DNA of 64,000 bases, from positions 1-64,000 of IMG/VR virus record IMGVR_UViG_3300010347_000503. One strand, 5' to 3'. A model generated the notes under the pieces. It was not told the origin of the DNA and did no database searches. It saw only the letters and a list, made by a program, of their open reading frames with translations. Positions 192-62,165 of the stretch are shown one piece after another. The DNA comes from a virus. Lineage: Duplodnaviria > Caudoviricetes. How positions within the stretch are numbered: the stretch's first letter is position 1; every line of letters begins with the position of its first letter. The translations under genes and the position numbers were made by a program.

Positions 192-248
192 CGAACAGAT
201 GTTCGATGTTTGTTTGGTCGAACATCTGTTCGGTCGAACGAACGTTCG
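192..248. promoter_or_regulatory. Cluster of three Gram-positive LexA (SOS/Cheo)-type boxes
   Basis: CGAAC-AGAT-GTTCG (192-205), CGAAC-ATCT-GTTCG (219-232) and CGAAC-GAAC-GTTCG (235-248) match the Bacillota SOS-box geometry CGAAC-N4-GTTCG. Confidence 0.6.
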
Positions 249-267
249 AATCCTAAAATGTACACAC

Positions 268-372
268 AACTAACTCAAATTGCATACAACTAACTTAAGT
301 TAGCTATAACTAACTCAGGTTAGTCTTGACTAACTCGGGTTAGGTAGATTGAACCTAAGTTAGTTATAGCTA
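268..372. repeat. Tandem CTAAC-N4-GTTAG dyad array (about 20-bp period)
   Basis: CTAAC-TTAA-GTTAG, CTAAC-TCAG-GTTAG, CTAAC-TCGG-GTTAG and TGAAC-CTAA-GTTAG occur in series. Confidence 0.8.
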
Positions 373-469
373 ATTTTAAATTTTAATAAAAAATGCAAAA
401 AATGTATTTTTACCTGCTGCCGGCAGCGCATAGTCGCCATTGCAGCACGCCAACAGTGAGATCCCCATT

Positions 470-1560
470 TCATTGTAACACAGAACAAGAGAAATGTCAA
501 TACTTTTTAGAAAAATTTTTTTAAAAAAATTTTTAAAAAATTTCTTGACAATCTGCGCGGAGCGTGGTATAATAGAAGTGAAGCCTTTGAAATGCAGCGA
601 GGCGTGCTAACATGCTGCGAGGCGACTCGCGTTTTTTGCGAGTCGCCAACATCTGTAAACGATCGAGCGCAGCTCGAAATTCCACGAGAGCATCCCATTC
701 AAGTATAACACATCTGAAAAGTCTTGTCAATACTTTTTTGAAAAAATCTCAAAAAAAATTTTTTAAAAAAATCTACTAGCAACTCTTGACAAAACTAGAC
801 TTTTGTAGTAGAATAAAAGAGAGTGCTGTAGTCCAGTTAGTCGCAACTAACTCAAGTTAGTTCATTGCAACTTAAGTTAGTTTGAAAGGAAAAGCATTAG
901 TCTTAACTAACTTGAGTTAGTTTAAACTAACTACAGTTAGCCTATTGCAATCCAAGTTAGTTTGAAAGGAAAAGTATTCGGGATAACTAACCACAGTTAA
1001 GCGTAGCTAACCGCCAAAGCCCGAAAAATTATACCACACATGGCACAAATTTGTCAAGCACTTTTTTCGAGCAAAAGAAAAAATATTTTTTTCTTGACAA
1101 CAAGAGAACAATGTGATACAATGGAGGGTTAGGACAGTGCGGTTAGTTTAAACTAACTACAGTTAGATCAATGCAACAAAAGTTAGTTTGAAAGGAAAAG
1201 TATTTCATACAACTAACTTAAATTAGATAATACTAACTACAGTTAGACAAGACTAACCATAGTTAGGCGATTGTAACAAGAGTTAGTTTGAAAGGAAAAG
1301 TATTAGTTTAAACTAACTACAGTTCAAGCAGCTTAAACTCTAATTAGACACAACTAACTCAAGTTCAAGCTGCTTGAACTATAGTTAGACGGAACTAACT
1401 CAAGAGCCACAACCTTTTATTATAACACAACAAAAGAAAAAAGAAAAGCACTAAAAAAGTGCTTGACAAACAAACAAAAGAAGAGTATAATAGATAGTTG
1501 CTTTTTAAAGATAATAAATAAACCATCTATTATACTACTTTTGTAAAATAATGTCAAGCA
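470..1560. promoter_or_regulatory. Four back-to-back pairs of consensus sigma70 promoters with no ORFs
   Basis: Plus-strand TTGACA-17-TA(T/G/C)AAT near 545, 786, 1094 and 1464. Minus-strand equivalents near 472-500, 702-730, 1028-1057 and 1528-1557. Confidence 0.7.
835..1400. repeat. Second and third CTAAC-N4-GTTAG arrays, with four copies of GTTAGTTTGAAAGGAAAAG(T/C)ATT
   Basis: Many copies of AACTAACT(N)3-4GTTAG. The longer unit recurs near 879, 957, 1182 and 1282. Confidence 0.8.
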
Positions 1561-1817
1561 CTTTTTTTAAAATTATTTTTTTAAAATAAAAATGTAGAAA
1601 ATACGGGGTGAAGTCTGTTTTCGATGCTTGAAAGCCAGTATTTACGGGCATTAAAAAAGTTTGCACCCTTGAAAGCCAGTATCTATGCGGGATCCAGGGA
1701 TCCGGTCGCCGCAAACGCAATAACCACGGGCATAAAAAAAATGTTGACAGACTGATTTTTTTGTGATACTATTATCTCAACAACAAAACAAGCACCCACG
1801 AAAGAGAGGTAAAAGGT

Positions 1818-1952
1818 ATGACAAGAGAGTATGTAGCAATTTTCAAGGATGACACAATGGCAATCTTCACCGCAAAAGACATGCACGATGCGTGGCGGAT
1901 GGCTCTTGAAAAATGGGGATGGATGGTTCACTCGGTAGACGTTTGGAACTAA
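1818..1952 (+). CDS. Hypothetical 44-aa early protein
   Basis: Promoter near 1745, RBS GAGAGG, MTREYVAIFKDD..., followed by a terminator hairpin. Below the ORF-track cutoff. Confidence 0.65.
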   Translation: MTREYVAIFKDDTMAIFTAKDMHDAWRMALEKWGWMVHSVDVWN

Positions 1953-2108
1953 TCCATAAAGGGGAACGGCAAAAAGCCGTTCCCCACACTTCAAAAAAAT
2001 TTTTAATAAATTTCAAAAAATCTATTGACAATCTTTTTGAAGTGTGATAAAGTATAATCAGAAACAGAAAACAAGCACCGCAAGGGGAAAGGGTAAAGGG
2101 TAAAACAA

Positions 2109-2234
2109 ATGTTTAAGGTTACATTCTTTAAGAAGAACACAAGCGAAAAGAGATTTAAGGTTTTAACAATTGATGAGTTAATCGCTCTACAGAAATTAAA
2201 AAACTACACAATCACAAGAGTAGATATTTTCTAA
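2109..2234 (+). CDS. Hypothetical 41-aa early protein
   Basis: Own promoter, purine-rich leader, MFKVTFFKKN..., and a downstream hairpin terminator. Confidence 0.55.
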   Translation: MFKVTFFKKNTSEKRFKVLTIDELIALQKLKNYTITRVDIF

Positions 2235-2369
2235 AAATAAATCGGGGGATTGAAAAAATCCCCCGAGCCACCACAAAAAAATTTTTCAAAAAAGTGTTGA
2301 CAAAGAAAAGCGGATGTGGTATCTTATAATCAGAACAGCAAACAGCCACAAAAACAGGAGGGTAAAGGG

Positions 2370-2561
2370 ATGACAAGAGAGGAAATGATAGCTTTAACCG
2401 AGGAAATTCAGGAAAAGGCAGAGGAACTGATGGAGTTAGTTAAGAAGTACAACAAAGAAGCCGAGGAAATGGGCGGGAGATACGAAAAGGAATTGAAAGA
2501 CTACTACTGGAAAAACGAATTTAAAGAACTGGAAAAAGCACTCTACAAAAATACACCTTGA
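2370..2561 (+). CDS. Hypothetical coiled-coil early protein
   Basis: RBS CAGGAGG; ATG at 2370 (MTREEMIAL). Confidence 0.7.
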   Translation: MTREEMIALTEEIQEKAEELMELVKKYNKEAEEMGGRYEKELKDYYWKNEFKELEKALYKNTP

Positions 2562-2717
2562 AAACTAAATAAAATCGGGGGCAAAAAGCCCCCGACAACA
2601 CCAAAAAAAATTTTAAAAAAATTTCAAAAAAGTGTTGACAAGGGAAAATAAAAGTAGTATTATAAGATCATAGCAAACAACACAGCACACCGCAAGGCGG
2701 TAGAAAGAGAGGACAAA

Positions 2718-3125
2718 ATGAGAATTTGGGAAGAAATCGAAAAGCACTTACAGTTAGCACAGAATACCCCCTATGGGAAAGATGCTTTAGAGCATTACAA
2801 AAAAGCAAGAGCATTATACGAGGTTTTCCTTGTAGAGAATGAGCAAAAATGGGAAGACTACAAAAAACAGTTTGATGAAACAGAAAAGTACCCCGCTACC
2901 GCAAAAAATAGGAGGGCGCTGAAAATGACAAAAATAAATTACGGATACTACAAATACTGTAAGAAAAGCGGATGGGCGTCCGAGTTGGCGCTGAAAATGG
3001 CAAAGGAAATTTACGGATACTACAGATACTATAGGAAAAGCGGATGGGCGCCCAAACTGGCGCTGAAAATGGCAAAAGATGAGTGGGCACTTTGGCAGAA
3101 ATTAAGAAAGGCGCTGGGGGAATAA
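2718..3125 (+). CDS. Hypothetical protein with an internal 24-aa tandem repeat (YGYY..Y.KSGWA..LALKMAK)
   Basis: RBS GAGAGG; the repeat is visible in both protein and DNA. Confidence 0.75.
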   Translation: MRIWEEIEKHLQLAQNTPYGKDALEHYKKARALYEVFLVENEQKWEDYKKQFDETEKYPATAKNRRALKMTKINYGYYKYCKKSGWASELALKMAKEIYGYYRYYRKSGWAPKLALKMAKDEWALWQKLRKALGE

Positions 3126-3869
3126 CCCCCAGCACCACCACAAAAGAAGAGGAGAAAAGAGGATGGCATACATAGTAAAAATCAATACTGAAGTTGGGCA
3201 TAAGAGTTTGACAATCATAGCAAACAGCAAGGAGGAAGCCGAAACAAAAGCAAAAGAAAATAAAGACTACCGAGGCACGATAGATGTGCGGTTGTGGGAA
3301 CCGGTATATTTTGAATAAACAGGTAACAGGCGGGGTGCGGTTCCCGCCTTTCCTATCGTCTTATGCCCGAACGTCCGTTCGGGCACGAATTATTATTATA
3401 CTACAGGTCGTCGCATTTTGTCAAGAGATTTTTTGTAAATTTTTTTTAAATTTTTTATCCCAAAATCGGCAGCAGGATTAGTCATAACTAACTTAAATTA
3501 GATTAGACTAACCGAGGTTAGTCGCAACTAACCGGCTCAGCTCGAATTTGCGCGAGCACCCCATTTCATTATAACATCAAAACGAAAATTTGTCAATAGG
3601 TTTTTGAAAAATTTTCCTAAAAATATTTTTACTTTTTCTATTGACATTTATTGCCTTTTGTAGTATAATAAAATAAAAACCCTCTTACAGATCCGCAAGA
3701 GGGTCTCTCCTTTATTATACCATGGAAATGATATTTTTGTCAATAGTTTTTTGAAAACTTTTTTTAAGAAAATTTTTGAAAAACTTATTGACTTATTACT
3801 ATAATGTGATATACTTATATCATAACAAGGGGATACAGTAAGCCCCACAGATAAGGAAGAGAGGTATAG

Positions 3870-3974
3870 ATGATGGAAATGAAAGAAAAGGTTTTATGTG
3901 CAATCGGGACAATTTTCGTGTTGGGTCTGCTATTATTATCTAGCACATTAGAATATACACTAATGATACAATAA
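3870..3974 (+). CDS. Small membrane peptide (34 aa)
   Basis: RBS GAGAGG; hydrophobic core VLCAIGTIFVLGLLLL. Confidence 0.5.
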   Translation: MMEMKEKVLCAIGTIFVLGLLLLSSTLEYTLMIQ

Positions 3975-4186
3975 AACTCTTTCCTCTTGTCAATAGACAA
4001 TTTTGCTAAAGATGTTTGAAAAACCTTGTGCATTTTGCCTATTGACTTTTGAAATAATATATAATACCCCTAAAAAAAATTTGAAAATTTGTGCATTTTG
4101 CCTATTGACAGCCCCCAATTTTTGTGATATAATTTGGCGGCGCGCGAACGCCCACCGCGCGCCGCTTGTTTGTTTGTTCGGTTACT

Positions 4187-4232
4187 CGAACAGTTGTTCG
4201 ATCGAAAATGTGTTCGAGCGAACAGCTGTTCA
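4187..4232. promoter_or_regulatory. Three LexA-type boxes at an exact 16-bp period
   Basis: CGAAC-AGTT-GTTCG (4187), CGAAA-ATGT-GTTCG (4203) and CGAAC-AGCT-GTTCA (4219), downstream of the promoter at 4105-4132. Confidence 0.6.
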
Positions 4233-4549
4233 GATCCCGAATTGTATGCGCAACTCAGTTTAGTTGTATGAACACCTTTAGACAACTTGGATCCGGTTGA
4301 AGTTGTCTAGAGTTGTTCATACAACTACTCCAAATTATTTATCGTGGGCGGGCGCTGGCGCCCGAAATATTATATCACAGGGCATCGCAGTTTGTCAAGA
4401 CTAATTTTTGAAAAAATTGCACAAAAATTTTACGCCCGATTTATGAAACTTTTTTGCGAAAGTCTATTGACAACAGGGGGTGAGTATGATAATATATAAT
4501 CAGACAGAGGGGATACGGTAAGCCCCCACAAAAGAGAGAGGTAAAGGAT

Positions 4550-4798
4550 ATGAACGAAGAAATGATGATGGTTATTGTTGACAAGGCAAGAAAGAAAGTA
4601 AATAATTGGCTTGAAACAGCTAAAGAATGTGTAAAAGATTATCACGGTGTTAGATTTTGTATGAATCAGGCTGATGCTATATGGTCATTCGTTACGACTG
4701 ATTGCACTCCTACTTATGAGGCTTATACAGAGTTATCAAAAGAATGGCGAGAAGTATATAAACCTCAGTTTGAAGCCCTTGTGGATGAGGCGGATTAA
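4550..4798 (+). CDS. Hypothetical early protein
   Basis: Promoter, RBS GAGAGG and terminator; from the ORF track. Confidence 0.75.
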   Translation: MNEEMMMVIVDKARKKVNNWLETAKECVKDYHGVRFCMNQADAIWSFVTTDCTPTYEAYTELSKEWREVYKPQFEALVDEAD

Positions 4799-4895
4799 AT
4801 AATCCGCCTCATAAAAAAAATAAAAATAGTTGTTGACAAAATCAAAAAAAATGATATAATAAGATTATAAAGAAAAAGAAAGAGAGGAAAATAAA

Positions 4896-5087
4896 ATGAC
4901 AACAGAAGAAATGATTATGTACGACCAGTTGGTAGATATGGGAATTGCAACAACAGATGAACTCAACTTTGCAAGAAACCTTATGGGCGGCGAGTGGATA
5001 GAAGTTTTAAACGCTGTACTGTTTGTTCGCACCGGATATAGGTCGATGGAACAGATGTTAGAAGCGGAAGATGAAGATTTCGAGTGA
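4896..5087 (+). CDS. Hypothetical acidic early protein
   Basis: Promoter and RBS GAGAGG; from the ORF track. Confidence 0.75.
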   Translation: MTTEEMIMYDQLVDMGIATTDELNFARNLMGGEWIEVLNAVLFVRTGYRSMEQMLEAEDEDFE

Positions 5088-5360
5088 TTGCCCTCCTCTC
5101 TCTAATAGGGATCCCCTGAATTTTAGGGGATCTCCTTTTTTTATGGCGGCACGCGATGGACCGCCGCGTGCCGGGTTGTATGTTTGGATCATATTTCTGA
5201 ATGTTTGTCAAGCCTTTTTTTGTAAAAAAATATACAAAAAAATATCCCGTAATTTGTGCAATTTTTTATATAAAAATATTTGACAACAACCCTAGGATAT
5301 GGTATATTATACTTGTAGCAAGGAAGTAAATCCCAACAGAAAGAAAGAGAGGAAAATGTT

Positions 5361-5561
5361 ATGGTTTATTTTATCGAGTATGCAAAGGTGTCTCCCGCAA
5401 TTTTGGATATGATTATTACAACGGCTTGTCCTAACGCCTATACTATGAGCTATCCGGTGGAAGATGCGGATGATATGTTCGAGTTAGCTGTTTGTTTCTG
5501 GGAAGATGCAACCAACCTTGACTTGTGTAAGGTAGAAAGAACACTGGCACCCTATGTATAA
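5361..5561 (+). CDS. Hypothetical early protein
   Basis: Promoter and RBS GAGAGG; from the ORF track. Confidence 0.7.
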   Translation: MVYFIEYAKVSPAILDMIITTACPNAYTMSYPVEDADDMFELAVCFWEDATNLDLCKVERTLAPYV

Positions 5562-5591
5562 TAGGGTGTTCCATAAGAACAGGAGGAATAG

Positions 5592-5762
5592 ATGATGAGA
5601 GTTATTGAATGGATTGAACAAAAACCACGTGATTTATATGGACGTAATATCCGTATATTAAACTTAACTACTAATAGAGATATGGGCGACTGGACTGATT
5701 ATAAGGATCGCATTGTTTTAAAAGTTAAAGTTACCATAAAATATATTTTCTTATATATTTAA
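5592..5762 (+). CDS. Hypothetical 56-aa protein
   Basis: RBS CAGGAGG; MMRVIEWIEQ... Confidence 0.55.
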   Translation: MMRVIEWIEQKPRDLYGRNIRILNLTTNRDMGDWTDYKDRIVLKVKVTIKYIFLYI

Positions 5763-5824
5763 TATTGACAAATAAAATAAAATATGATATAATGTTTTTA
5801 ACAAAAGAAAAGAGAGGTAACAAA

Positions 5825-6136
5825 ATGGAATATCAAGTAACCCTGTTTTGTAGCACAAAGAAATATCGCCCTATATCTTGCATTGTCAAGAGAAATGATA
5901 AAGTAGATATTCATAATGCTACTGTAAAGCGTCAATTGCTGAATGAGGGGATGAAAAAAATCTGTATTCAGCGTGGTTGGACGGCTCGTGATCTTGCAAC
6001 CTTTGGTTATGCTATGGGAAAAGTGCGGGAATATGACAAAGAAAAACTTGACAAAGAGGCGGAAGAGCGGTATAATAAAATAAAGGAAGAGAAATACGCA
6101 TCGGGCGAGTGGAAACGTCCCAAAAGAAAGGAGTGA
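5825..6136 (+). CDS. Hypothetical protein
   Basis: RBS GAGAGG before ATG 5825 (MEYQVTLFCS). Confidence 0.75.
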   Translation: MEYQVTLFCSTKKYRPISCIVKRNDKVDIHNATVKRQLLNEGMKKICIQRGWTARDLATFGYAMGKVREYDKEKLDKEAEERYNKIKEEKYASGEWKRPKRKE

Positions 6137-6140
6137 TATT

Positions 6141-6326
6141 ATGTTTACTACTTTAGAAATCGTTTTAATTGCTGTATTGGTTTATTTATTAATCGGAATT
6201 GCGATTACAATGCTTGTTGCAAGAGATGGTGTTATGGATACTGCTGATATTGCTTTAACTACCTTTTTATGGGCGAGAATACCTCTTATCTTGATCCGTA
6301 ACAAATTAAAGAAAATTATCGAGTGA
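6141..6326 (+). CDS. Small membrane protein
   Basis: RBS AAGGAG; two hydrophobic segments. Confidence 0.65.
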   Translation: MFTTLEIVLIAVLVYLLIGIAITMLVARDGVMDTADIALTTFLWARIPLILIRNKLKKIIE

Positions 6327-6734
6327 TCGTACTCTCTCTTTCCTTTGGGCGCCCCTAAAATTGGGGCGCCCTTTTCCGGGGCAAAATTTTTTTTGAAAAA
6401 TTTTAAAATAATACTTGACATTTACCCCTAATGTGCGACGGGGCGCGCACGTTCCTTGCGCGCCCCAATTTTCCATTATACCACAGCCGCCACCATTTTG
6501 TCAATAGGAAATTTGCACAATTTTTTAGAATATTTTATCCCAAAATTAGTGCAATATTCCAACTTGAAAAATTAAAAATATTTTGTTATAATTATAAATG
6601 TAAAGAGATAAGAAAAGGGCGGAAAACAAAAAGACCCCGCTAAACAAAAAAAATAAAAAAATCTCTTGACAAATAAAATTAAATATGATAAAATAAAGAT
6701 GTAAACAAAAACAACACACAAAAGAAAGGAATTG

Positions 6735-7094
6735 ATGAAAATGGAAAAGATGACAAATGTAAAGGCACTCTCTTATGTAATCGAGAACTTCGAGAATGAG
6801 GTTCCGGCTGATGTGTTCGAGAAGTTGGTTGCTATCCGTACTTCTTTCGAGAAGAAATCCGCAAGCAAGAAACTGACTGCTAATCAGGAAGAAAACGAGG
6901 GCTTTAAGGCTACTATTATCGAGGTACTCACTAATGCAGACAAGGCGCTGACTGTAACTGAAATTCAGACCGTAAATGCTGAACTCAGCGCACTCTCTAA
7001 TCAGCGTGTATCCGCACTCTTGAGACAGCTGATTGATGCTAACAAGGTCGTTAAGACAGTAGACAAGAAAAAGTCGTTTTTCTCTATCGCATAA
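6735..7094 (+). CDS. Winged-helix DNA-binding protein (paralog of 11727-12080)
   Basis: C-terminal LSNQRVSALLRQL..V.KT..KK..F wHTH-like pattern, nearly identical in motif to the second copy. Confidence 0.7.
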   Translation: MKMEKMTNVKALSYVIENFENEVPADVFEKLVAIRTSFEKKSASKKLTANQEENEGFKATIIEVLTNADKALTVTEIQTVNAELSALSNQRVSALLRQLIDANKVVKTVDKKKSFFSIA

Positions 7095-7156
7095 TAGCAA
7101 CTTGCGGATGGGGGTAGGGTAGTGAAACTACCCCCCAACAAAAAGAGGGTAACAAA

Positions 7157-7483
7157 ATGAACAAAGAAAAGCTAATTCTTGAAATTATGGCGGATGCTGA
7201 AAAAGACGGCGAGCCTGTTACAAGAGAAGAGGCAGAGAAAATGGCGGAAATGGAAATAAAAGCTAACGCCTCCCGCCGATATGAAAAAGCGGAAACCGCA
7301 CGCAAACCCGCAAAAAGAGAAGTCAAGAAAGATCCAGAAAAAATTGAAATAATCAAAAAAATTTGTGATTTTCTCTTGACAAATGGCGAGGAAAGTGCTA
7401 CAATAGTAAATGAACAAAAGGAAATACAGTTTAGAGAGTTTTCAATCACTCTCACCAAACACAGAAAGGGGAAAACAAAATGA
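7157..7483 (+). CDS. Hypothetical protein (distantly resembles 12141-12548)
   Basis: RBS GAGGG; from the ORF track; same position after the wHTH gene. Confidence 0.7.
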   Translation: MNKEKLILEIMADAEKDGEPVTREEAEKMAEMEIKANASRRYEKAETARKPAKREVKKDPEKIEIIKKICDFLLTNGEESATIVNEQKEIQFREFSITLTKHRKGKTK

Positions 7484-7656
7484 TTAAGAGAATGGTAACT
7501 TTTGAGGAATGTCCGAAAACCAAGGCGGAGTTCATCGCCAAGTGGAGCGCAGACCGCGACTTCCGCTATCGTGCAAAGGCAAGCGGTTTCAAGGTTCTGT
7601 TTGGAACCAATGTAGTTTTCCCCACGGGGAAAGTAGCAGGGGAAAAGGTCAAGTAA
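7480..7656 (+). CDS. Hypothetical 58-aa protein
   Basis: ATGA overlap with the upstream stop; MIKRMVTFEECPK... Confidence 0.6.
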   Translation: MIKRMVTFEECPKTKAEFIAKWSADRDFRYRAKASGFKVLFGTNVVFPTGKVAGEKVK

Positions 7657-8080
7657 GACCTCCCCACCTGCGCCCATAGCCTAGTGGTTAGGCACACGAC
7701 TCGACAACTTGACAAGTTTAAAAATTTTTGGTATAATATACATGTAACAAAAAATAAAAGAGGGCGTCGCCTAAAGGTATGGCACCAAACTTTTAATTTG
7801 GTCAATGGGGGTTCAATTCCCCCTCGGGCGCACTCGTCAACATACGTTTCGTTCCCTCTCTTTCTTTAGGCGATGACTTCGGTTATCGCCCATTTTCTTT
7901 TCAGTGGGTCGCGCAGGAACGGCGCGACCCAAATTTACCATTATACCACCTCCCGCACATTTTGTCAAGCAAAAATTAATTAAAAATTATACAAAAATTT
8001 ATCCTAAAATTTATCTATTTTGTCTATTGTATTATTCTGATAATTTGATATAATAATATTATCAAATGAAAGAGAGGTAA

Positions 8081-8353
8081 ATGCAGATGTTAATCTACTC
8101 TAATATTGCAAGTAAGAGAACCTATGTAGAATGGTGGGGCGGTAGTACAAAGCATCCCGATGTCCGCCACTGTTATCAGGATGATGTTGAGAAAGAAAGA
8201 TTTACCCCTAACAAATTTTTAGGTGATGAATACAGTGTATTTCAATGGCTTGTAATGTGTTGTAGTAATTTGAGTTTTGGTACGAACTCTTCACTAAAAG
8301 ATTTATTAGAATTAACAAAAGAATATACAGAACCCTTAAAAAGATGGGGTTGA
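8081..8353 (+). CDS. Hypothetical protein
   Basis: Promoter and RBS GAGAGG. Confidence 0.7.
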   Translation: MQMLIYSNIASKRTYVEWWGGSTKHPDVRHCYQDDVEKERFTPNKFLGDEYSVFQWLVMCCSNLSFGTNSSLKDLLELTKEYTEPLKRWG

Positions 8354-8403
8354 CAAACAACCCCATAGATGGTATAATAAAGAAAAAACAGGAGGAATAA
8401 AAA

Positions 8404-8631
8404 ATGACAATCGTTGGTCCAAGAGTAAAGGTATCTTTTACAAAAGAAGAGTTGGATGCATTCTCTATTGTTGCAGATATTATCAAAGGATTGCGAGTAA
8501 AAGAGGTGGATGGCTTTATTGAAGCGGTAACTGCTTATGATAGCATTTTCTATGATGAGTTTGGTGATAAAACCACTGTATTTGAATTTGAATTTTTAAA
8601 TAATATGGATAAGGAAGAAGAGGAGGAATAA
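8404..8631 (+). CDS. Hypothetical acidic protein
   Basis: Promoter and RBS CAGGAGG. Confidence 0.7.
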   Translation: MTIVGPRVKVSFTKEELDAFSIVADIIKGLRVKEVDGFIEAVTAYDSIFYDEFGDKTTVFEFEFLNNMDKEEEEE

Positions 8632-8742
8632 GGGACTGAACAAATGTTCGGCCCGGGCAAAAAATTTTATAAAAAATTTATTGACAAACAATAGAAAGTG
8701 TAGTATAATGAATACATAAGATAAAGAAAAGAGAGGAAAAAA

Positions 8743-8994
8743 ATGAAAGAATTTTTCAACATTAACGAACCTTATAAGTTTGAAATGAACGACTTGCGGG
8801 CAGTAATTCAGATTATCAATGTTGTACTGATTATGATTTTTGGTCTGTCTGTTTCGTGGTTTGGTCTGGCTCTTGCGGTGTTTGGTCTTATTAAAGATTT
8901 TACCACAGATAGACACATTAACTCGATTGCTATGCACACCGCAAGCGCAACTTTAAACATTTACTTTTTAACACTTTTGTATGGAGGTATGTAA
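8743..8994 (+). CDS. Membrane protein
   Basis: RBS GAGAGG; 2-3 hydrophobic segments. Confidence 0.7.
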   Translation: MKEFFNINEPYKFEMNDLRAVIQIINVVLIMIFGLSVSWFGLALAVFGLIKDFTTDRHINSIAMHTASATLNIYFLTLLYGGM

Positions 8995-8995
8995 A

Positions 8996-9175
8996 ATGAT
9001 TTATAAAAAACTTTACACTTTTAAAATGCCTAGTTTTGAGTATTTTAAAGATGAATTAGAATGGGGCATTGAAACTTTAGATGATTTATTATACATGCTC
9101 GATAAGATGACAGAGGATGAACTTCGTGAATTTGGAGATGTTGAAATAGATACAAAATTAATTATTGACAAATAA
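8996..9175 (+). CDS. Hypothetical acidic protein
   Basis: RBS GGAGG at 8983-8987; MIYKKLYTFK... Confidence 0.65.
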   Translation: MIYKKLYTFKMPSFEYFKDELEWGIETLDDLLYMLDKMTEDELREFGDVEIDTKLIIDK

Positions 9176-9231
9176 ATAAAAATATGATATAATAATAATG
9201 TAAACAAACAAAAGAAAGCGAGGTAAGAAAA

Positions 9232-9360
9232 ATGACAGCATTAACTTATGAATGTGTAACCAAGGATGGTAAAAAAGTAGAGGTAAAGACCTACGCTGAA
9301 GCGTTGAAGATTAAGGCGGAGGGCGGTACTTTCAAGGCGAAGTACACGAAAATCAAATAA
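9232..9360 (+). CDS. Hypothetical 42-aa basic protein
   Basis: Promoter and RBS GAGG; MTALTYECVTKDGKKVEVKTYAEA... Confidence 0.6.
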   Translation: MTALTYECVTKDGKKVEVKTYAEALKIKAEGGTFKAKYTKIK

Positions 9361-9594
9361 GTCGAGCGGGCGGGAGAAATCCCTGCCCTTTTCATCAGCG
9401 CGCGATGGGTCGCCGCGCGCTGAAATTCACCATTATACCATACCCCAAGGTTTTTGTCAAGCGTTTTTTAGAAAAAAATTATACAATTTTTTATCCCGAA
9501 ATTTGTGCAAAAAGTTAGCGAAAAATTATTGACTTATGTATTTAAAATGATATAATAATAGTATAGTAAATAAAAGAAAGAGAGGTAAATAAGA

Positions 9595-10062
9595 ATGAAC
9601 AAAACTTTAGTATTTGACATGGATGGCACAATCGCTAATCTGTATGGGGTAGAAAACTGGCTCGATGATTTAAGAGCGGAAAATCCTCGCCCTTATGTCG
9701 ACGCAGAACCGATGTATAATATGGTCGTTCTGAATGGTCTTTTGAAAATGTTTAAAGAAATGGGCTGGCGTATTGTGGTGACAACGTGGTTGTCAAAGGG
9801 TAGCACTCCCGCATATGATGCTCTTGTCCGTGAAGCAAAAATTGAATGGCTTACAAGATATGATTTCCCCTACGATGAAATCCACCTTGTAAAGTATGGC
9901 ACAACGAAAGCAAATTGTACACGGCGTATAGGCGGTTTTCAGGTACTTGTTGATGATAATGAGCAGGTACGCAAGGGATGGACACTCGGTGATACAATTA
10001 ACGCAAACGAAAATATCATTAAGGCTCTTTTGGAACTGTTAGAAACTGAGGTGGTGGGGTAA
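9595..10062 (+). CDS. HAD-superfamily phosphatase (5'(3')-deoxyribonucleotidase-like)
   Basis: N-terminal LVFDMDGTIANLY and C-terminal LVDD motif. Confidence 0.75.
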   Translation: MNKTLVFDMDGTIANLYGVENWLDDLRAENPRPYVDAEPMYNMVVLNGLLKMFKEMGWRIVVTTWLSKGSTPAYDALVREAKIEWLTRYDFPYDEIHLVKYGTTKANCTRRIGGFQVLVDDNEQVRKGWTLGDTINANENIIKALLELLETEVVG

Positions 10063-10101
10063 AACCCCCCACCCCGCAATAAAAAGGAGGTATATGCAAA
10101 A

Positions 10102-10362
10102 ATGGCAAAAGTGTTAAAATTAATTAAACATCAAGAAATTGAAATTCCGATAGAGAGAATTGAAAAAGATTGGAAAGAATATAATGGTGAGTGCCTAGCC
10201 TATGGTGACGAAGATTCTATGATAGAAACTCTTGAGGATTATATTGAGAGTGTAGAAGAGGATTATCTCGCAGACTTTGACCAGGTTATATATGATTATG
10301 CAGAAATTGCAAAAGGGCTAAAGGATAAAAGAGAATGGGAAATTGTAGAAGAGGGGGAATAA
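10102..10362 (+). CDS. Hypothetical acidic protein
   Basis: RBS AAGGAGG. Confidence 0.7.
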   Translation: MAKVLKLIKHQEIEIPIERIEKDWKEYNGECLAYGDEDSMIETLEDYIESVEEDYLADFDQVIYDYAEIAKGLKDKREWEIVEEGE

Positions 10363-10680
10363 TCCCCCTCTTTCTATGAGTGGACCGCGCGCGAACGCGC
10401 CCGGTCCAAAATTTCATTATAACACAGGTTCTAAGGTTTTGTCAAGTGAAAATTGCAAATTTTTTAAAAAAATATTTTTCCTAAAATAATTGACAAATAA
10501 ATAAAAATATATTATAATGATTATAGTAACAAGATAAAGGGGCTTGTAAAACTTGAAACGAAACCCCGACAAGTGTGTAAGGAAGTCAATGTGCGCATAG
10601 GGTTGGAATAATCTTGAAAAAGGGCATTGACAATCTCCTTTAACTATGTTACAATAGTAATAGAAAGAGAGGTAAGAACT

Positions 10681-11187
10681 ATGAAAGGGATGAAGAAACT
10701 TAACAAGGCAATTAAAGCGGAAGTTGCGAAGTTTGGAATTGAAAAAATCTCCATGGGTGACTGGGAATGGCGGATGGATAACCACTCTATTGAATACACC
10801 TTACTTGAAAATCGTATGGAAGATATTTTCTTTCTGAAATTTGTAAAAGAGCGTTTTGGATATAAACCACTTAACTGTTTCATGCTTTCTTTATTCCATG
10901 AAATCGGGCATAACATGACGTATGAGGATTTAATGGAAAGTGATGTCATTTATGATTTTTGTCAGGCGGAAAAGAACCGCATCGAAAAAGAGATGGCATC
11001 CATTGAAACAAAAAAGCAAGCAAAAAAACTTGAATATCAGTATTTCAACCTCCCCGATGAGATTGTGGCAACTGCTTGGGCGGTAGACTACATGGAAACC
11101 CATGAAGAGGAAATCATGGGAATGTGGGAGAGAATTAAAAAAGAAATTGTAAAATTTTATGAAAAAAACCTTGACACGGAAGAATAA
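10681..11187 (+). CDS. Hypothetical protein with a possible HExxH zinc motif
   Basis: LFHEIGH motif; RBS GAGAGG before ATG 10681. Confidence 0.6.
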   Translation: MKGMKKLNKAIKAEVAKFGIEKISMGDWEWRMDNHSIEYTLLENRMEDIFFLKFVKERFGYKPLNCFMLSLFHEIGHNMTYEDLMESDVIYDFCQAEKNRIEKEMASIETKKQAKKLEYQYFNLPDEIVATAWAVDYMETHEEEIMGMWERIKKEIVKFYEKNLDTEE

Positions 11188-11726
11188 ATGTAGTATAATG
11201 ACAATGTAAAATAACAAAGAGGGCTAAAAAGCCCTCTTTTTATGAGTGGCGCGTTTTGGAACAAAACGCGCCAAATTCACCATTATACCATACCCTTGAG
11301 ATTTTGTCAAGCGAAAAATCAAAAAAAATTGTACAAAGATCTATCCCATAATTAGTGCATCTTTCCGATATTGATTTTTTAAAAATTTTTTGTTATAATA
11401 AATACATAAGATAAAGAAAGAAATAAAAAGTGGAAGAGGAAAGTTTCAAGCAACTTCAATCGGTCTCACCGCCACTTCAAAAAATAGGAAAAACCAAAAA
11501 AAATGCTTGACAAGCACAAAAGAATATGATATAATAAATACATAAGATAAAAGGAAGCGACTTAACAGGGCGGGAAACCCTAAATAGTGCGCACGGGGTA
11601 AACAAGACAGTCAATTCCGAGGTTTGAAAACCTACTAAAAAAAATTCAAAAAAGTGCTTGACAATTAAAACTGAATATGGTACAATAATAATGTAAACAA
11701 AAACAATCCAACCAAGAGAGGAATTG

Positions 11727-12080
11727 ATGAAAATGGAAAAGATGACAAATGTAAAGGCACTGGCGTTCGCAATCGAGAATGGTGACTTTCCGCAGGAAGT
11801 AACCGACAAGTTGGTAGCGATTAAGACTTCCTTTGAAAAGAAGTCGGAAAACAAAAAGCCTACCGCAAATCAGGCGGCAAATGAGGACTACAAGGCAACT
11901 ATCCTCAATGTACTTGATGGAGTAGGCGCAGTAACCGTCACCGAGTTACAGGGTAAGGATGAAACCCTTGGCGCATTGTCTAATCAGAGAGTGAGCGCAC
12001 TTCTTCGTCAGTTGGTTGAGGCTGGTAAGGTCGTCAAGACGATGAACAAGAAGAAAGCACTTTTCGCACTTGCGGAATAA
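11727..12080 (+). CDS. Winged-helix DNA-binding protein (paralog of 6735-7094)
   Basis: Shares MEKMTNVKAL, TANQ..NE..KATI and LSNQRVSALLRQL with the first copy. Confidence 0.7.
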   Translation: MKMEKMTNVKALAFAIENGDFPQEVTDKLVAIKTSFEKKSENKKPTANQAANEDYKATILNVLDGVGAVTVTELQGKDETLGALSNQRVSALLRQLVEAGKVVKTMNKKKALFALAE

Positions 12081-12140
12081 ATCATATAGGCAGTGGGGGC
12101 AAGGCACATAATCCCTTGCCCCACTTGAAAGGGGGAACAA

Positions 12141-12548
12141 ATGCGATACACATTAGCAAATGGCAAGACAATTTCAATTCCCGATGATGAAATAAAAGCA
12201 AATATGAAACTAGGTATCACCGAAAATGAAGCGGTTGAAATGTGGCTTGAGGATAATGAGTATGAAGTCAACGAGGAACAAACCGCATTAGAGGAAAAAG
12301 CCAAGGGTATGAAAATTGACCACGGAGCAGGCAACGCAGAACGTAAAAAGTCCTCTAAACCTAGAACCGTACACACTTCAGACGAGAAAAAAGAGCTATT
12401 TGAAACCATTTTAGCTAATATTGACCGCGCGGAGGGCGTTGAACGTGAAAATATCGAAATTTTAAAGGAAAATAAGCTGATTCAGGTGAAAATCGGGGCA
12501 AAAACTTTCAAAATTGACCTAATTGAGTGCAGACCGCCTAAAAAATAG
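12141..12548 (+). CDS. Hypothetical protein
   Basis: RBS GGGGG; from the ORF track. Confidence 0.7.
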   Translation: MRYTLANGKTISIPDDEIKANMKLGITENEAVEMWLEDNEYEVNEEQTALEEKAKGMKIDHGAGNAERKKSSKPRTVHTSDEKKELFETILANIDRAEGVERENIEILKENKLIQVKIGAKTFKIDLIECRPPKK

Positions 12549-12786
12549 GCGGTTTTTGTTATGAGTGGCGCATTTTCGAACGAAAATGCGCCAAATTTCC
12601 ATTATAACACAGGTTTTGAGGTTTTGTCAAGTGATTTTTTCAAAAAAAATGCACAAATTTTGATCCCGAAATTTGTGCAACATTCACCGCAAAAATCGCT
12701 TGCATTTCTATTCTATTGTGTTATAATGAATACATAAGGTAACAACAAACAACACCAACAAAAAGAAAGAGAGGTTTTAAACCAAA

Positions 12787-13746
12787 ATGAAAAAAAAGTA
12801 TTATCTTGTACTTGACACCGAAACCGCAACACTGCCGTTCGCAAATGATTTATGCAAGTCTACAAAGGACAAGCAGAAAATCGCAATCGCAAAACCGCTT
12901 GTATATGACATCGGTTGGGTAATTATTGACCGTCTGGGTAATATCGTCAAGAAAGTTAATTATCTGGTTCAGGAAACTTTCTTTGTACCAAACGTATTCA
13001 ACACCGCATATTATAAGGACAAGCGCCCTATTTATATGAACTTGCTTGCAAATGGTTTGATAACCGCAAAATGTTGGAACGATATTATGAATGAACTTGA
13101 ATACGACTTGTCGGGATGTGACCTTGTAACCGCTTATAACGCTTGTTTCGACTTCAAGAAAGCAATTCCGTTTACCGAACGCTATATATATCATTTGTAT
13201 CGGAGTGATTATAATGAGTGGGAAGCAGGACAGCGCAAGCACTGTAATCGCCTTGTGAATGGGGCAAAAGATGATAGCGATGGAAACCCCGAATATTTAA
13301 CCCCTGTATTCAAGTTAAGATGTAAGGAATATCCGATGTGCGACTTGTGGGGGCTGGCTTGTGAACGTCTTATCAATATAGACAAATACCGCAATTATTG
13401 TTTAGAGTATGGACTTTTAACAGCAAGCGCAATCTATTTCAAAACAAGTGCGGAAACAAGTTTCCAGTATCTTATGCAAAATTACGACTTTATCGAAGAC
13501 CACACCGCTTTAAACGATGCAATTATTGAAAGTCAGATTTTAGCAAAAGGTCTGAAAAAAGGTGCGGTAAATCCGATGGTGACTGCTTTTCCGTTCCGTG
13601 AACTCGGCACAACTTACGATTATGTGCTGAACAAAAAGCCGAAATATAGAGAAAATCTGCGGAGTTGCCTTGAGGAATATATGGAAACACTGAACGAGGG
13701 AACGGCATATTATACACGGATGGAAAGCATTTTAGCACAGCTTTAA
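12787..13746 (+). CDS. DEDDh 3'-5' exonuclease
   Basis: LDTET (ExoI), AYNACFD (ExoII) and HTALND (ExoIII). Confidence 0.8.
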   Translation: MKKKYYLVLDTETATLPFANDLCKSTKDKQKIAIAKPLVYDIGWVIIDRLGNIVKKVNYLVQETFFVPNVFNTAYYKDKRPIYMNLLANGLITAKCWNDIMNELEYDLSGCDLVTAYNACFDFKKAIPFTERYIYHLYRSDYNEWEAGQRKHCNRLVNGAKDDSDGNPEYLTPVFKLRCKEYPMCDLWGLACERLINIDKYRNYCLEYGLLTASAIYFKTSAETSFQYLMQNYDFIEDHTALNDAIIESQILAKGLKKGAVNPMVTAFPFRELGTTYDYVLNKKPKYRENLRSCLEEYMETLNEGTAYYTRMESILAQL

Positions 13747-13983
13747 AAAGCGGGGAACCCCTAGGGGCTCCCTTTTCTAATGCCTTGAGCGGTGCGTGCA
13801 GGAACGGCACGCACCGAATTCACAATTATATCATATTTTCAAGGTTTTGTCAAGTAAAAATTCAAAAAAAAATGCACAAAATTTTATCCCATAATTTGTA
13901 CTTGACGATATAAAAAAATTATATTATAATGATTATAACAAAACAAATAATAATTATAGAAAATGAAAGAGAGGAAAAGAAAA

Positions 13984-14172
13984 ATGTTTGAAAATTTAAA
14001 AAAGGAATTAGATATTAGTAAAACTATAATAGCTGTAACAGATATATTTACTGATTTTTATGCAAGTACAGAAAGAGAGGGTATTCAATTAAAGACACAA
14101 AAAGGAAATTATATTGAATTATATAATGATGGTACTTGGACATATTATGAGGGAGAAAATGATGAGAATTGA
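13984..14172 (+). CDS. Hypothetical protein
   Basis: RBS GAGAGG; from the ORF track. Confidence 0.6.
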   Translation: MFENLKKELDISKTIIAVTDIFTDFYASTEREGIQLKTQKGNYIELYNDGTWTYYEGENDEN

Positions 14173-31116: not shown

Positions 31117-31127
31117 GTTAATATAAT

Positions 31128-31218
31128 AGGGGTGTAGCATAATGGTTAATGCAGCTGTCTCTAAAACAGCCAGGTGCGTCCAAACCACCGGATGTGGGTT
31201 TAAATCCTACCACCCCTG
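31128..31218 (+). tRNA. Amber suppressor tRNA (CTA), long variable arm (Ser/Tyr-like)
   Basis: GCTGT-CTCTAAA-ACAGC gives anticodon CTA; discriminator G. Confidence 0.8.
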
Positions 31219-31220
31219 TA

Positions 31221-35397: not shown

Positions 35398-35751
35398 GGG
35401 GTCGAAACAGTTTCGACGGGGTCTTGAAAATTATTAGTTCGCACGAAATGATATGCGCGTTATGCAATCAAACTTAAAATAAACGCAAAAGTTATTTCTT
35501 TTAATTCTTATAGACCGGTAGCTATGGCTGCCTAATATAATGAATACCTCAAGTAATTCTATCGCTTCTGGTCAATGCTTGAGTGTTTAAGTAAAAGAAG
35601 CAAGTCGGTTCTTTGTAAACGCAGTTAGGAACAAAGTGGTGGGTCTAGGCAAAAACCTGTTAAAGTGAGAGAACACTTAGAAAACGCTATTGCGTAAAAA
35701 ACTAATAATTAGTATGGATTTCGGACGCGGGGGCAGAGCCCGCCGGCTCCA
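35398..35751 (+). ncRNA. ssrA: tmRNA; tag reading frame 35485-35535 AKVISFNSYRPVAMAA*
   Basis: GGGGTCG...TTCGAC 5' end, G3.U70 acceptor with CGGCTCCA, ATAAAC-GCA resume context, and a tag ending in AA. Confidence 0.9.
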
Positions 35752-35755
35752 CTTT

Positions 35756-61112: not shown

Positions 61113-62165
61113 ATGGCAAGTATTGATATTTTTAGTGTAAAACCTCATCAAGTAAGTCGTGATATGCGCGGTTATTCTGTATTTATGTATGGCGGATGGA
61201 AAACAGGTAAGACAACTACCGCAGTTAAATTCCCAAAGCATTTTTTGTTAGCTTTTGAAAAAGGTTACTCTGCAATTCCTGGAGCAATGGCTCAACCTAT
61301 TAATTCCTGGGGCGAATTTCGTCAAGTTCTTCGCCAGCTTAAAGAACCAAATGCGAAAACTATGTTTGAAACAATTATTGTCGATACCGCAGATATTGCA
61401 TATGACTATTGTGTAAAATATATCTGTGATAATTATACTAGACCCGATGGTGGAACTGGCGTAGATTCCGTATCTGATATTCCTTTTGGTAAGGGTTATG
61501 GAATGATTGAAAAAGAATTTGATTCTTGTCTTCGTCAGATTGTTCAATTAGGTTATGGTCTTGTAGTTATCTCTCATGAAACTGATAAGACTTTTAAAAA
61601 TGAAAGTGGAACAGAATATAATAAAATTGTTCCTACTCTTGATAAGAGAGCTAACAATGTTCTTGCAAGAATGAGCGATATTATCGGTTATACTAGATCC
61701 GTTCCAGATGAATCTGGTAAAGAAAAAGTTGTAATGTTTATGCGCGGTACTTCTCGTTATGAAGCTGGTTCTCGTTTTAAATATACACCTGATTATATTG
61801 ATTTAAGCTATGATAATCTTGTTAAAGCTATTGGAGATGCTTTGGATAAGCAAATGGAGGAAGATGGTTCTGATCTTTTCACAAAAGAGAGAGAAAATGT
61901 ACATCTTGATACTACAACCGATCTTGATTTTGATGATTTAATGAAGAGATTTAATACTATTATTGCTAATATTCCTGGCTCTTCTGATGGAAAAGCTGAG
62001 ACTGAAGAAGGTATTAAGTTTAGAGATTATTGGCAGCCAAGAATTACTCAAATCATTGAACGTTATCTTGGTAAAGGTAAGAAAGTACGTGATGTAACAA
62101 GAGAGCAAGTAGAAGCTATGGACTTAATTGTTACTGAATTGGAAGATATTATTAAAGAGAAATAA
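61113..62165 (+). CDS. AAA_24/Sak4-like ATPase
   Basis: YGGWKTGKTT, IIVDTAD and ISHE. Confidence 0.75.
   Translation: MASIDIFSVKPHQVSRDMRGYSVFMYGGWKTGKTTTAVKFPKHFLLAFEKGYSAIPGAMAQPINSWGEFRQVLRQLKEPNAKTMFETIIVDTADIAYDYCVKYICDNYTRPDGGTGVDSVSDIPFGKGYGMIEKEFDSCLRQIVQLGYGLVVISHETDKTFKNESGTEYNKIVPTLDKRANNVLARMSDIIGYTRSVPDESGKEKVVMFMRGTSRYEAGSRFKYTPDYIDLSYDNLVKAIGDALDKQMEEDGSDLFTKERENVHLDTTTDLDFDDLMKRFNTIIANIPGSSDGKAETEEGIKFRDYWQPRITQIIERYLGKGKKVRDVTREQVEAMDLIVTELEDIIKEK

Follow-up and report, generated by a model that had tools for sequence, protein, structure and literature searches.

What are the inverted repeats that separate the early gene cassettes of an uncultured phage? The question was raised by a 64,000-nt stretch of viral DNA (Duplodnaviria; Caudoviricetes), hereafter the window, which comprises the first 64 kb of the 90,893-bp IMG/VR virus record IMGVR_UViG_3300010347_000503 (linear, 32% G+C, approximately 58% complete). 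A first reading of the letters alone (the sequence-only reading) had described a dyad of 11-nt arms around a conserved, asymmetric 8-bp core, interpreted it as the crossover site of a tyrosine recombinase in an integron-like shuffling array, and named an operator between divergent promoters as the alternative. We found this alternative to be much closer to the sequence evidence. The dyad is likely the control region of a bidirectional early promoter, whose boxes would be contacted by a regulatory factor or by the C-terminal domain of the RNA polymerase alpha subunit (alpha-CTD), with cassette shuffling like that at the promoter-early stem-loops (PeSLs) of T4-type phages as a by-product.

A degenerate 30-mer with up to three mismatches matched the window six times (at 5231, 6524, 9480, 11330, 12650 and 13873), always on the + strand, and 100 shuffles of the window gave no match (six observed versus zero expected). 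A repeated dyad in one orientation between the cassettes, as first described, was thus confirmed, and its coordinates were correct. Copies were located at 5231–5260 (variant left box, ATCCC at 5244–5248, right box at 5253–5260), 9480–9509 (ATCCC at 9493–9497, right box at 9502–9509), 11330–11359 (three mismatches, ATCCC at 11343–11347), 12650–12679 (ATCCC at 12663–12667; the perfect 11-nt arms reported for this copy were seen) and 13873–13902. The copy reported at 7988–8017 (+ strand) was present but degenerate, with ATCCT at 8001–8005 and a decayed right box. The partial copies were also real: ATCCC stood alone at 3457–3461 (+ strand), the left box stood alone at 4418–4425, and the copy near 6535 was a complete unit (6514–6553, + strand), with the left box 10 bp further out (6514–6521), ATCCC at 6537–6541 and the right box at 6546–6553.

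When the sequence was anchored on a conserved nonamer, the dyad appeared as part of a module of approximately 200 bp, of which positions 1,000 to 14,000 contained at least 13 copies. Each module began with the upstream cassette's terminator and a perfect, GC-rich palindrome; next came a leftward promoter (PL), the left box TGCACAAA, ATCCC, the right box TTTGTGCA, a rightward promoter (PR) and the cassette genes. The DNA holding the boxes and ATCCC was A/T-rich, and all cassette genes lay on the + strand. Each cassette had its own promoter and terminator, as previously claimed. Thirteen copies of PL matched the sigma-70/sigma-A consensus at 12 of 12 positions, and almost all of them had a TG-extended −10. 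Together with its palindrome, it was located on the − strand at 3364–3424 (PL 3424–3395), 6440–6504 (palindrome 6440–6466, PL 6504–6475), 7905–7968 (palindrome 7905–7931, PL 7968–7940), 9395–9460 (palindrome 9395–9423, PL 9460–9432), 10381–10445 (PL 10445–10416, with the core decayed to TTCCT at 10478–10482), 11246–11310 (PL 11310–11282), 12566–12630 (palindrome 12566–12593, PL 12630–12601) and 13797–13853 (PL 13853–13825). All eight were 12/12 matches, and the last seven had the TG extension.

Most PR promoters of these modules deviated from the consensus, their −35 hexamers including TTGACT, TTGATT, TTGCAT and TTGAAA. On the + strand, PR followed the right box at 5280–5308 (the module at 5204; 11/12, 19 bp after the box), 6564–6592 (TTGAAA, 10 bp), 9529–9556 (TTGACT, 19 bp), 11371–11399 (TTGATT, 11 bp) and 12700–12727 (TTGCAT with a TG-extended −10, 20 bp; read directly). 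At 13902–13930 (TTGACG) it abutted the right box, which overlapped the −35 by one base. The solitary ATCCC at 3457–3461 was accompanied by neither a right box nor a PR, and it stood at the standard 33 bp from the −35 of its PL (3419–3424).

The elements of the dyad kept fixed distances to both promoters. ATCCC started exactly 33 bp past the last base of the PL −35 in all nine window modules that retain the core. In the window and its relatives together, the left box lay at +9 or +19 from the PL −35, ATCCC at +32/33 and the right box at +41/42, while the PR −35 was found at +48, +58 or +68 from the PL −35 and at −1, 9 or 19 bp from the right box. The spacer between the boxes was 8 or 18 bp, with the left box taking either of two positions 10 bp apart. 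We surveyed 407 promoter-like sites from this genome and related loci, allowing at most one mismatch to TTTGTGCA. The box ended 9 bp upstream of the −35 at 46 sites, 10 bp at six, 19 bp at 20 and −1 bp at three; boxes in the opposite orientation peaked only at 31, 41–42 and 51 bp, the positions of the partner promoter's box. Lone promoters had one box at the same offset, for example the rightward promoter at 4105–4133 with its single TTTGTGCA box at 4088–4095 (4088–4133 in all, + strand), 9 bp upstream of the −35. Since lone promoters bear single boxes, every arm can be assigned to a single promoter, and the repeat is inverted because the promoters stand back to back. The placement of the sites was thereby found to be fixed and helically phased with respect to PL and PR alike, as would be looked for in an operator or activator site of divergent promoters.

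The two arms have also drifted independently. Across 54 distinct modules from the phage and its relatives, the left box started 13–14 nt before TCCC in 22 modules and 24–25 nt before it in 29, so the 11-8-11 geometry, which had been taken as general, is the minority form. Changes in the arms were one-sided in 42 cases, compensatory in three and non-compensatory in five, and this independent drift rules out a conserved stem. The best-conserved stretch of the module comprised ATCCC, two variable bases and AATTTGTGCA, together with the PL −35.

The tyrosine recombinase presumed by the sequence-only reading did not turn up. The 90.9-kb record (58% complete) contained neither Phage_integrase (PF00589) nor Resolvase (PF00239) domains, and the same held for five relatives that bear the module; of these, three were estimated to be 100% complete and one had terminal repeats. 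Control genomes were positive. Relatives had an HAD nucleotidase, an exonuclease-like gene and winged-helix genes in common but in different order, and cassette-sized indels separated close relatives. The shuffling part of the proposed integron-like array therefore stood, in that cassettes are gained, lost and reordered among relatives. Its recombinase mechanism fell, with no enzyme found, a spacer of 8 or 18 bp and most junctions elsewhere.

Breakpoints had been anticipated in the ATCCC core. In alignments of the relatives, none of eight junction sets fell in ATCCC, one fell in the right arm, and the other seven lay at a promoter −10, a conserved leader, a ribosome-binding site or the edge of a GC hairpin. 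In events A–C, observed among L060–L064, the junctions were at the promoter −10, the conserved leader following it, the ribosome-binding site or the end of the upstream gene. Events W1–W5 were defined against L069 and L070, which are 85–97% identical to the window. Of these, W2 and W5 were joins at the −10 and the ribosome-binding site, W3 joined a promoter to the edge of a GC palindrome, and W4 was a rearranged tRNA. At the W4 site (window 7671–7832), L069 and L070 have one intact tRNA. The window contains the 5′ half of that tRNA, followed by an inserted promoter (7709–7737) and then by the original 3′ half with a new 5′ half in front of it, called as a tRNA at 7764–7832. The sole event involving the dyad was W1, in which L069 has a 567-bp cassette between two module copies. 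In the window, the module at 5204 combines parts of both copies: its core is of the left-copy type, and the switch lies inside the 8-bp AATTTGTG of the right box. This block is among the three longest identities shared by the two L069 copies, as plain homology would predict. The junctions show that short regulatory homologies, as at the T4 PeSLs, underlie cassette turnover, rather than an enzyme of the integron type. The repeated regulatory sequences would act as the short homologies for gain, loss and swap of cassettes, with a Sak4-like single-strand annealing protein (61113–62165, + strand) as a plausible catalyst.

PeSLs are repeated small cassettes of a strong sigma-70-type promoter and a stem-loop that flank small genes of unknown function, with indel and replacement junctions between close relatives inside the motifs and no site-specific recombinase involved (Arbiol et al. 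2010, PMC2839356; Comeau et al. 2014, PMC4122927). The same features were found here: a strong sigma-70-type promoter with a stem-loop was repeated between small ORFan genes, and the junctions of events A–C, W1, W2, W3 and W5 lay in the motifs. The present module differs from PeSLs in several respects. It belongs to another clade of phages, whose host is probably a member of the Bacillota; it works in two directions, its perfect antisense promoter being directed into a GC palindrome; and it has the additional TTTGTGCA boxes and ATCCC.

Two readings of the dyad can be judged on these results. As a crossover site, it resembles loxP, dif and integron attC superficially in its 11-8-11 inverted repeat with an asymmetric centre, it lies in one orientation between cassettes that vary among relatives, and one deletion or insertion junction falls in the right arm beside the core. 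However, of the fixed 6–8-bp spacer, cognate recombinase and junctions at the core that characterize tyrosine-recombinase core sites, none was found. The spacer varies, lone promoters bear single boxes, no tyrosine or serine recombinase was found in six genomes (three complete), and the only dyad junction, against seven sets elsewhere, lies in a block that fits plain homology. Nor do the cassettes resemble those of integrons, which are promoterless and share a common promoter (Pc) beside intI: each has a promoter and terminator of its own, and no integrase was found. This reading is already largely refuted, and we regard it as highly improbable. The dyad could also be an RNA hairpin or intrinsic terminator. 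The perfect copy at 12650–12679 is followed on the − strand by a T run and was flagged by a terminator scan, and a T run follows the right arm in some relatives. The arms do not co-vary (42 one-sided versus three compensatory changes), the left arm shifts by 10 bp, and the site in the window lies between divergent promoters, where transcription is not expected; a hairpin function is accordingly very unlikely.

The control-region architecture was conserved across a clade of phages. An 18-mer search of IMG/VR recovered the whole module in approximately 16 contigs of 80–200 kb, and a composite pattern recovered it in 18 contigs of metagenome-assembled genomes (MAGs) from human, rabbit, yak and ruminant guts. 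In complete relatives, the module copies were clustered in one region of approximately 10 kb. The MAG contigs were mostly binned as Bacillota or Clostridia in taxonomically mixed bins, which probably reflect mis-binned phage contigs, and in MAGs the composite of box and promoter was limited to few contigs; these were taken as phage, as the module locus showed for some of them only. The host of the phage clade is probably a member of the Bacillota. In 200 bacterial genomes of one candidate host family, this composite was rare, with 13 single hits and two in the control. A host regulon was rejected because of this rarity, with the caveat that the family is only a candidate host and the MAG bins were mixed. 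None of the usual consensus sequences for Spo0A, Rex, NrdR, CodY, the DnaA box and IHF fitted the motif. A megablast search with the region found nothing similar among the INPHARED phages, an Rfam scan matched only tRNAs and the tmRNA and nothing within the modules, and a literature search with the box sequence returned unrelated primers only. The module thereby defines a type of early-promoter architecture that has not been described before and is conserved in uncultured gut and rumen phages of 130–200 kb, which form a widespread clade. Its invariant 17-nt unit offers a concrete DNA target for finding the regulator of host takeover, and the motif offers a practical marker for early regions in metagenomic phage contigs.

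How could such a region work? Positions near −40, −50 and −60 upstream of a promoter are where alpha-CTD or class-I-type factors act. Each arm is a promoter-upstream TTTGTGCA box read towards its own promoter, approximately 9 or 19 bp upstream of the −35 and on one helical face, one box serving PL and the other PR, so that their back-to-back arrangement yields the inverted repeat. The boxes lie near −41, −51 and −61 ahead of both promoters, where a sequence-specific protein or alpha-CTD could read them while contacting the polymerase. From the sequence pattern we infer a sequence-specific protein that occupies the boxes and makes contact with RNA polymerase at PL as well as at PR. ATCCC, beside the right box and fixed 33 bp from the PL −35, may provide a third conserved, polar contact. 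Once bound, such a factor could keep polymerase at the perfect-consensus PL and at the same time aid the weaker-consensus PR, by analogy with protein p4 of phage phi29. There, a single upstream protein can repress a strong promoter, where polymerase is trapped, and activate a weak one, to which polymerase is recruited. The p4 sites (A2b/A2c versus A3) are likewise inverted repeats between divergent phage promoters, placed to contact polymerase alpha. Unlike the p4 sites, with which it has no sequence similarity, the unit described here occurs in more than 10 copies instead of one, both of its promoters are of the early class, and its binder is only a candidate.

The best candidate for the box binder, judged from its predicted fold and its distribution, is a 117-aa winged-helix early protein encoded at 6741–7094 (+ strand), with a 115-aa paralogue at 11733–12080 (+ strand; 62% identity). 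A duplicated two-gene module had been proposed; one gene was indeed duplicated, whereas the genes following the two copies were unrelated (E = 11). The 117-aa protein had 801 homologues, although Pfam and PHROGs gave no match for it or its neighbours. Its fold was predicted with a pLDDT (predicted local distance difference test) score of 91, and the C-terminal 70 residues resembled the winged-helix domains of Fur, Zur, PerR, ArsR, MarR and TubR in a weak Foldseek match (E approximately 2e-3). A winged-helix gene was present in every complete module-bearing genome tested, and this family was the only DNA-binding-looking early protein family common to all relatives. HU/IHF-like (PF00216) and sigma factor (PF04542) genes were not found in the 90.9-kb record, and a TF1-like binder of the boxes could therefore not be proposed.

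Several points weigh against a phage-encoded factor acting on the boxes. Early promoters fire before phage proteins exist, which would leave such a factor a role in feedback only, and the model as it stands does not appear to account for ATCCC. The relative L066 has three to four winged-helix copies with an unchanged recognition helix, yet only one TTTGTGCA module, and its approximately 35 early promoters bear a different upstream box at the same position; this pattern makes it less convincing that the winged-helix protein acts on the box. Finally, a family of palindromes, GTTAGT-N4-ACTAAC, would be an equally good target for the protein. At least 15 copies of this 16-bp palindrome occur with a strict 20-bp period in promoter-proximal non-coding DNA of the window (256–380, 833–960, 1119–1400 and 3474–3532) and have an iteron-like look. 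In L066 (ENA k141_430434), the early promoters are consecutive and rightward, and antisense promoters are absent. Each of these early promoters is preceded by an A-rich box whose last letters, GTTTCA, stand 8 bp from the −35 on its upstream side.

The boxes might also need no dedicated factor and instead be an unusual type of upstream (UP) element, in which the host alpha-CTD binds the AAATTT tract and its flank. In favour of this, boxes centred near −41, −51 and −61 on one helical face, in 10-bp steps, occupy known alpha-CTD docking positions. Moreover, the context is A/T-rich with A/T tracts as in UP elements, the related phage has its A-rich box at the same place, and early promoters must work without phage proteins. 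The best-conserved letters, however, include G/C positions (GTGCA, TCCC), unlike those of UP elements, many equally strong promoters of the same genome have no box, and within a single phage clade only some promoters bear the boxes. The composite is also rare in the 200 genomes of the candidate host family. ATCCC is likewise left unexplained, and we consider a pure UP-type element rather unlikely. A more elaborate version of the control region, which we put forward tentatively as a possible but not the leading account, would make ATCCC plus box the operator of a clade-specific phage regulator that switches the bidirectional promoter. PL would capture polymerase first, polymerase would then be redirected to PR, and the units would double as portable recombination joints for host-takeover cassettes. 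If true, large gut phages of Bacillota would possess a type of regulatory cassette for early genes that is new.

The antisense PLs (window 3364–13853, − strand) fire straight into GC palindromes of 8–11 bp. A PL firing only into such a palindrome would act as an insulator or make a short hairpin RNA, and PL and palindrome together could also serve as a polymerase trap. In several relatives (e.g. L034 and L051), the palindrome was flanked by convergent promoters, the second one facing PL; in the window this second promoter was mostly decayed, with a −10-like remnant left. The hairpin stems were essentially perfect Watson–Crick pairs. G–U wobble pairs numbered 63 versus 67 between the strands, and this lack of bias means that the palindrome reads alike on both strands and rules out assigning the hairpin to one strand from wobble pairs. 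The hairpins were also considered as CRISPR-repeat mimics, which was rejected as the stem sequences differ among copies. A conserved ACATAAGATAAAGAAAG-like leader directly followed the −10 of many PRs (window 8712–8730, 11400–11416 and 12728–12745; L060 and L062). It was kept even in distant relatives and was used as a recombination junction.

The 90.9-kb record carried approximately 20 tRNAs and a tmRNA, and encoded a topoisomerase II and an NAD-dependent ligase in addition to the Sak4-like protein. The tRNA island included a tRNA of the amber suppressor type (anticodon CTA) as well as the phage tmRNA (window 31127–31219 and 35398–35754), which hints at TAG recoding of late genes. The LexA (Cheo) box of Bacillota, CGAAC-N4-GTTCG, was matched eight times with at most one mismatch (0.34 expected), at window positions 192–248, 3368–3381, 4187–4232 and 8637–8650, with two triple arrays just downstream of promoters in non-coding DNA. 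In a lytic phage, such matches may serve as operators for LexA or as decoys. An open reading frame of 135 aa at 2718–3125 contained a tandem 72-bp repeat with 83% identity (window 2915–3058).

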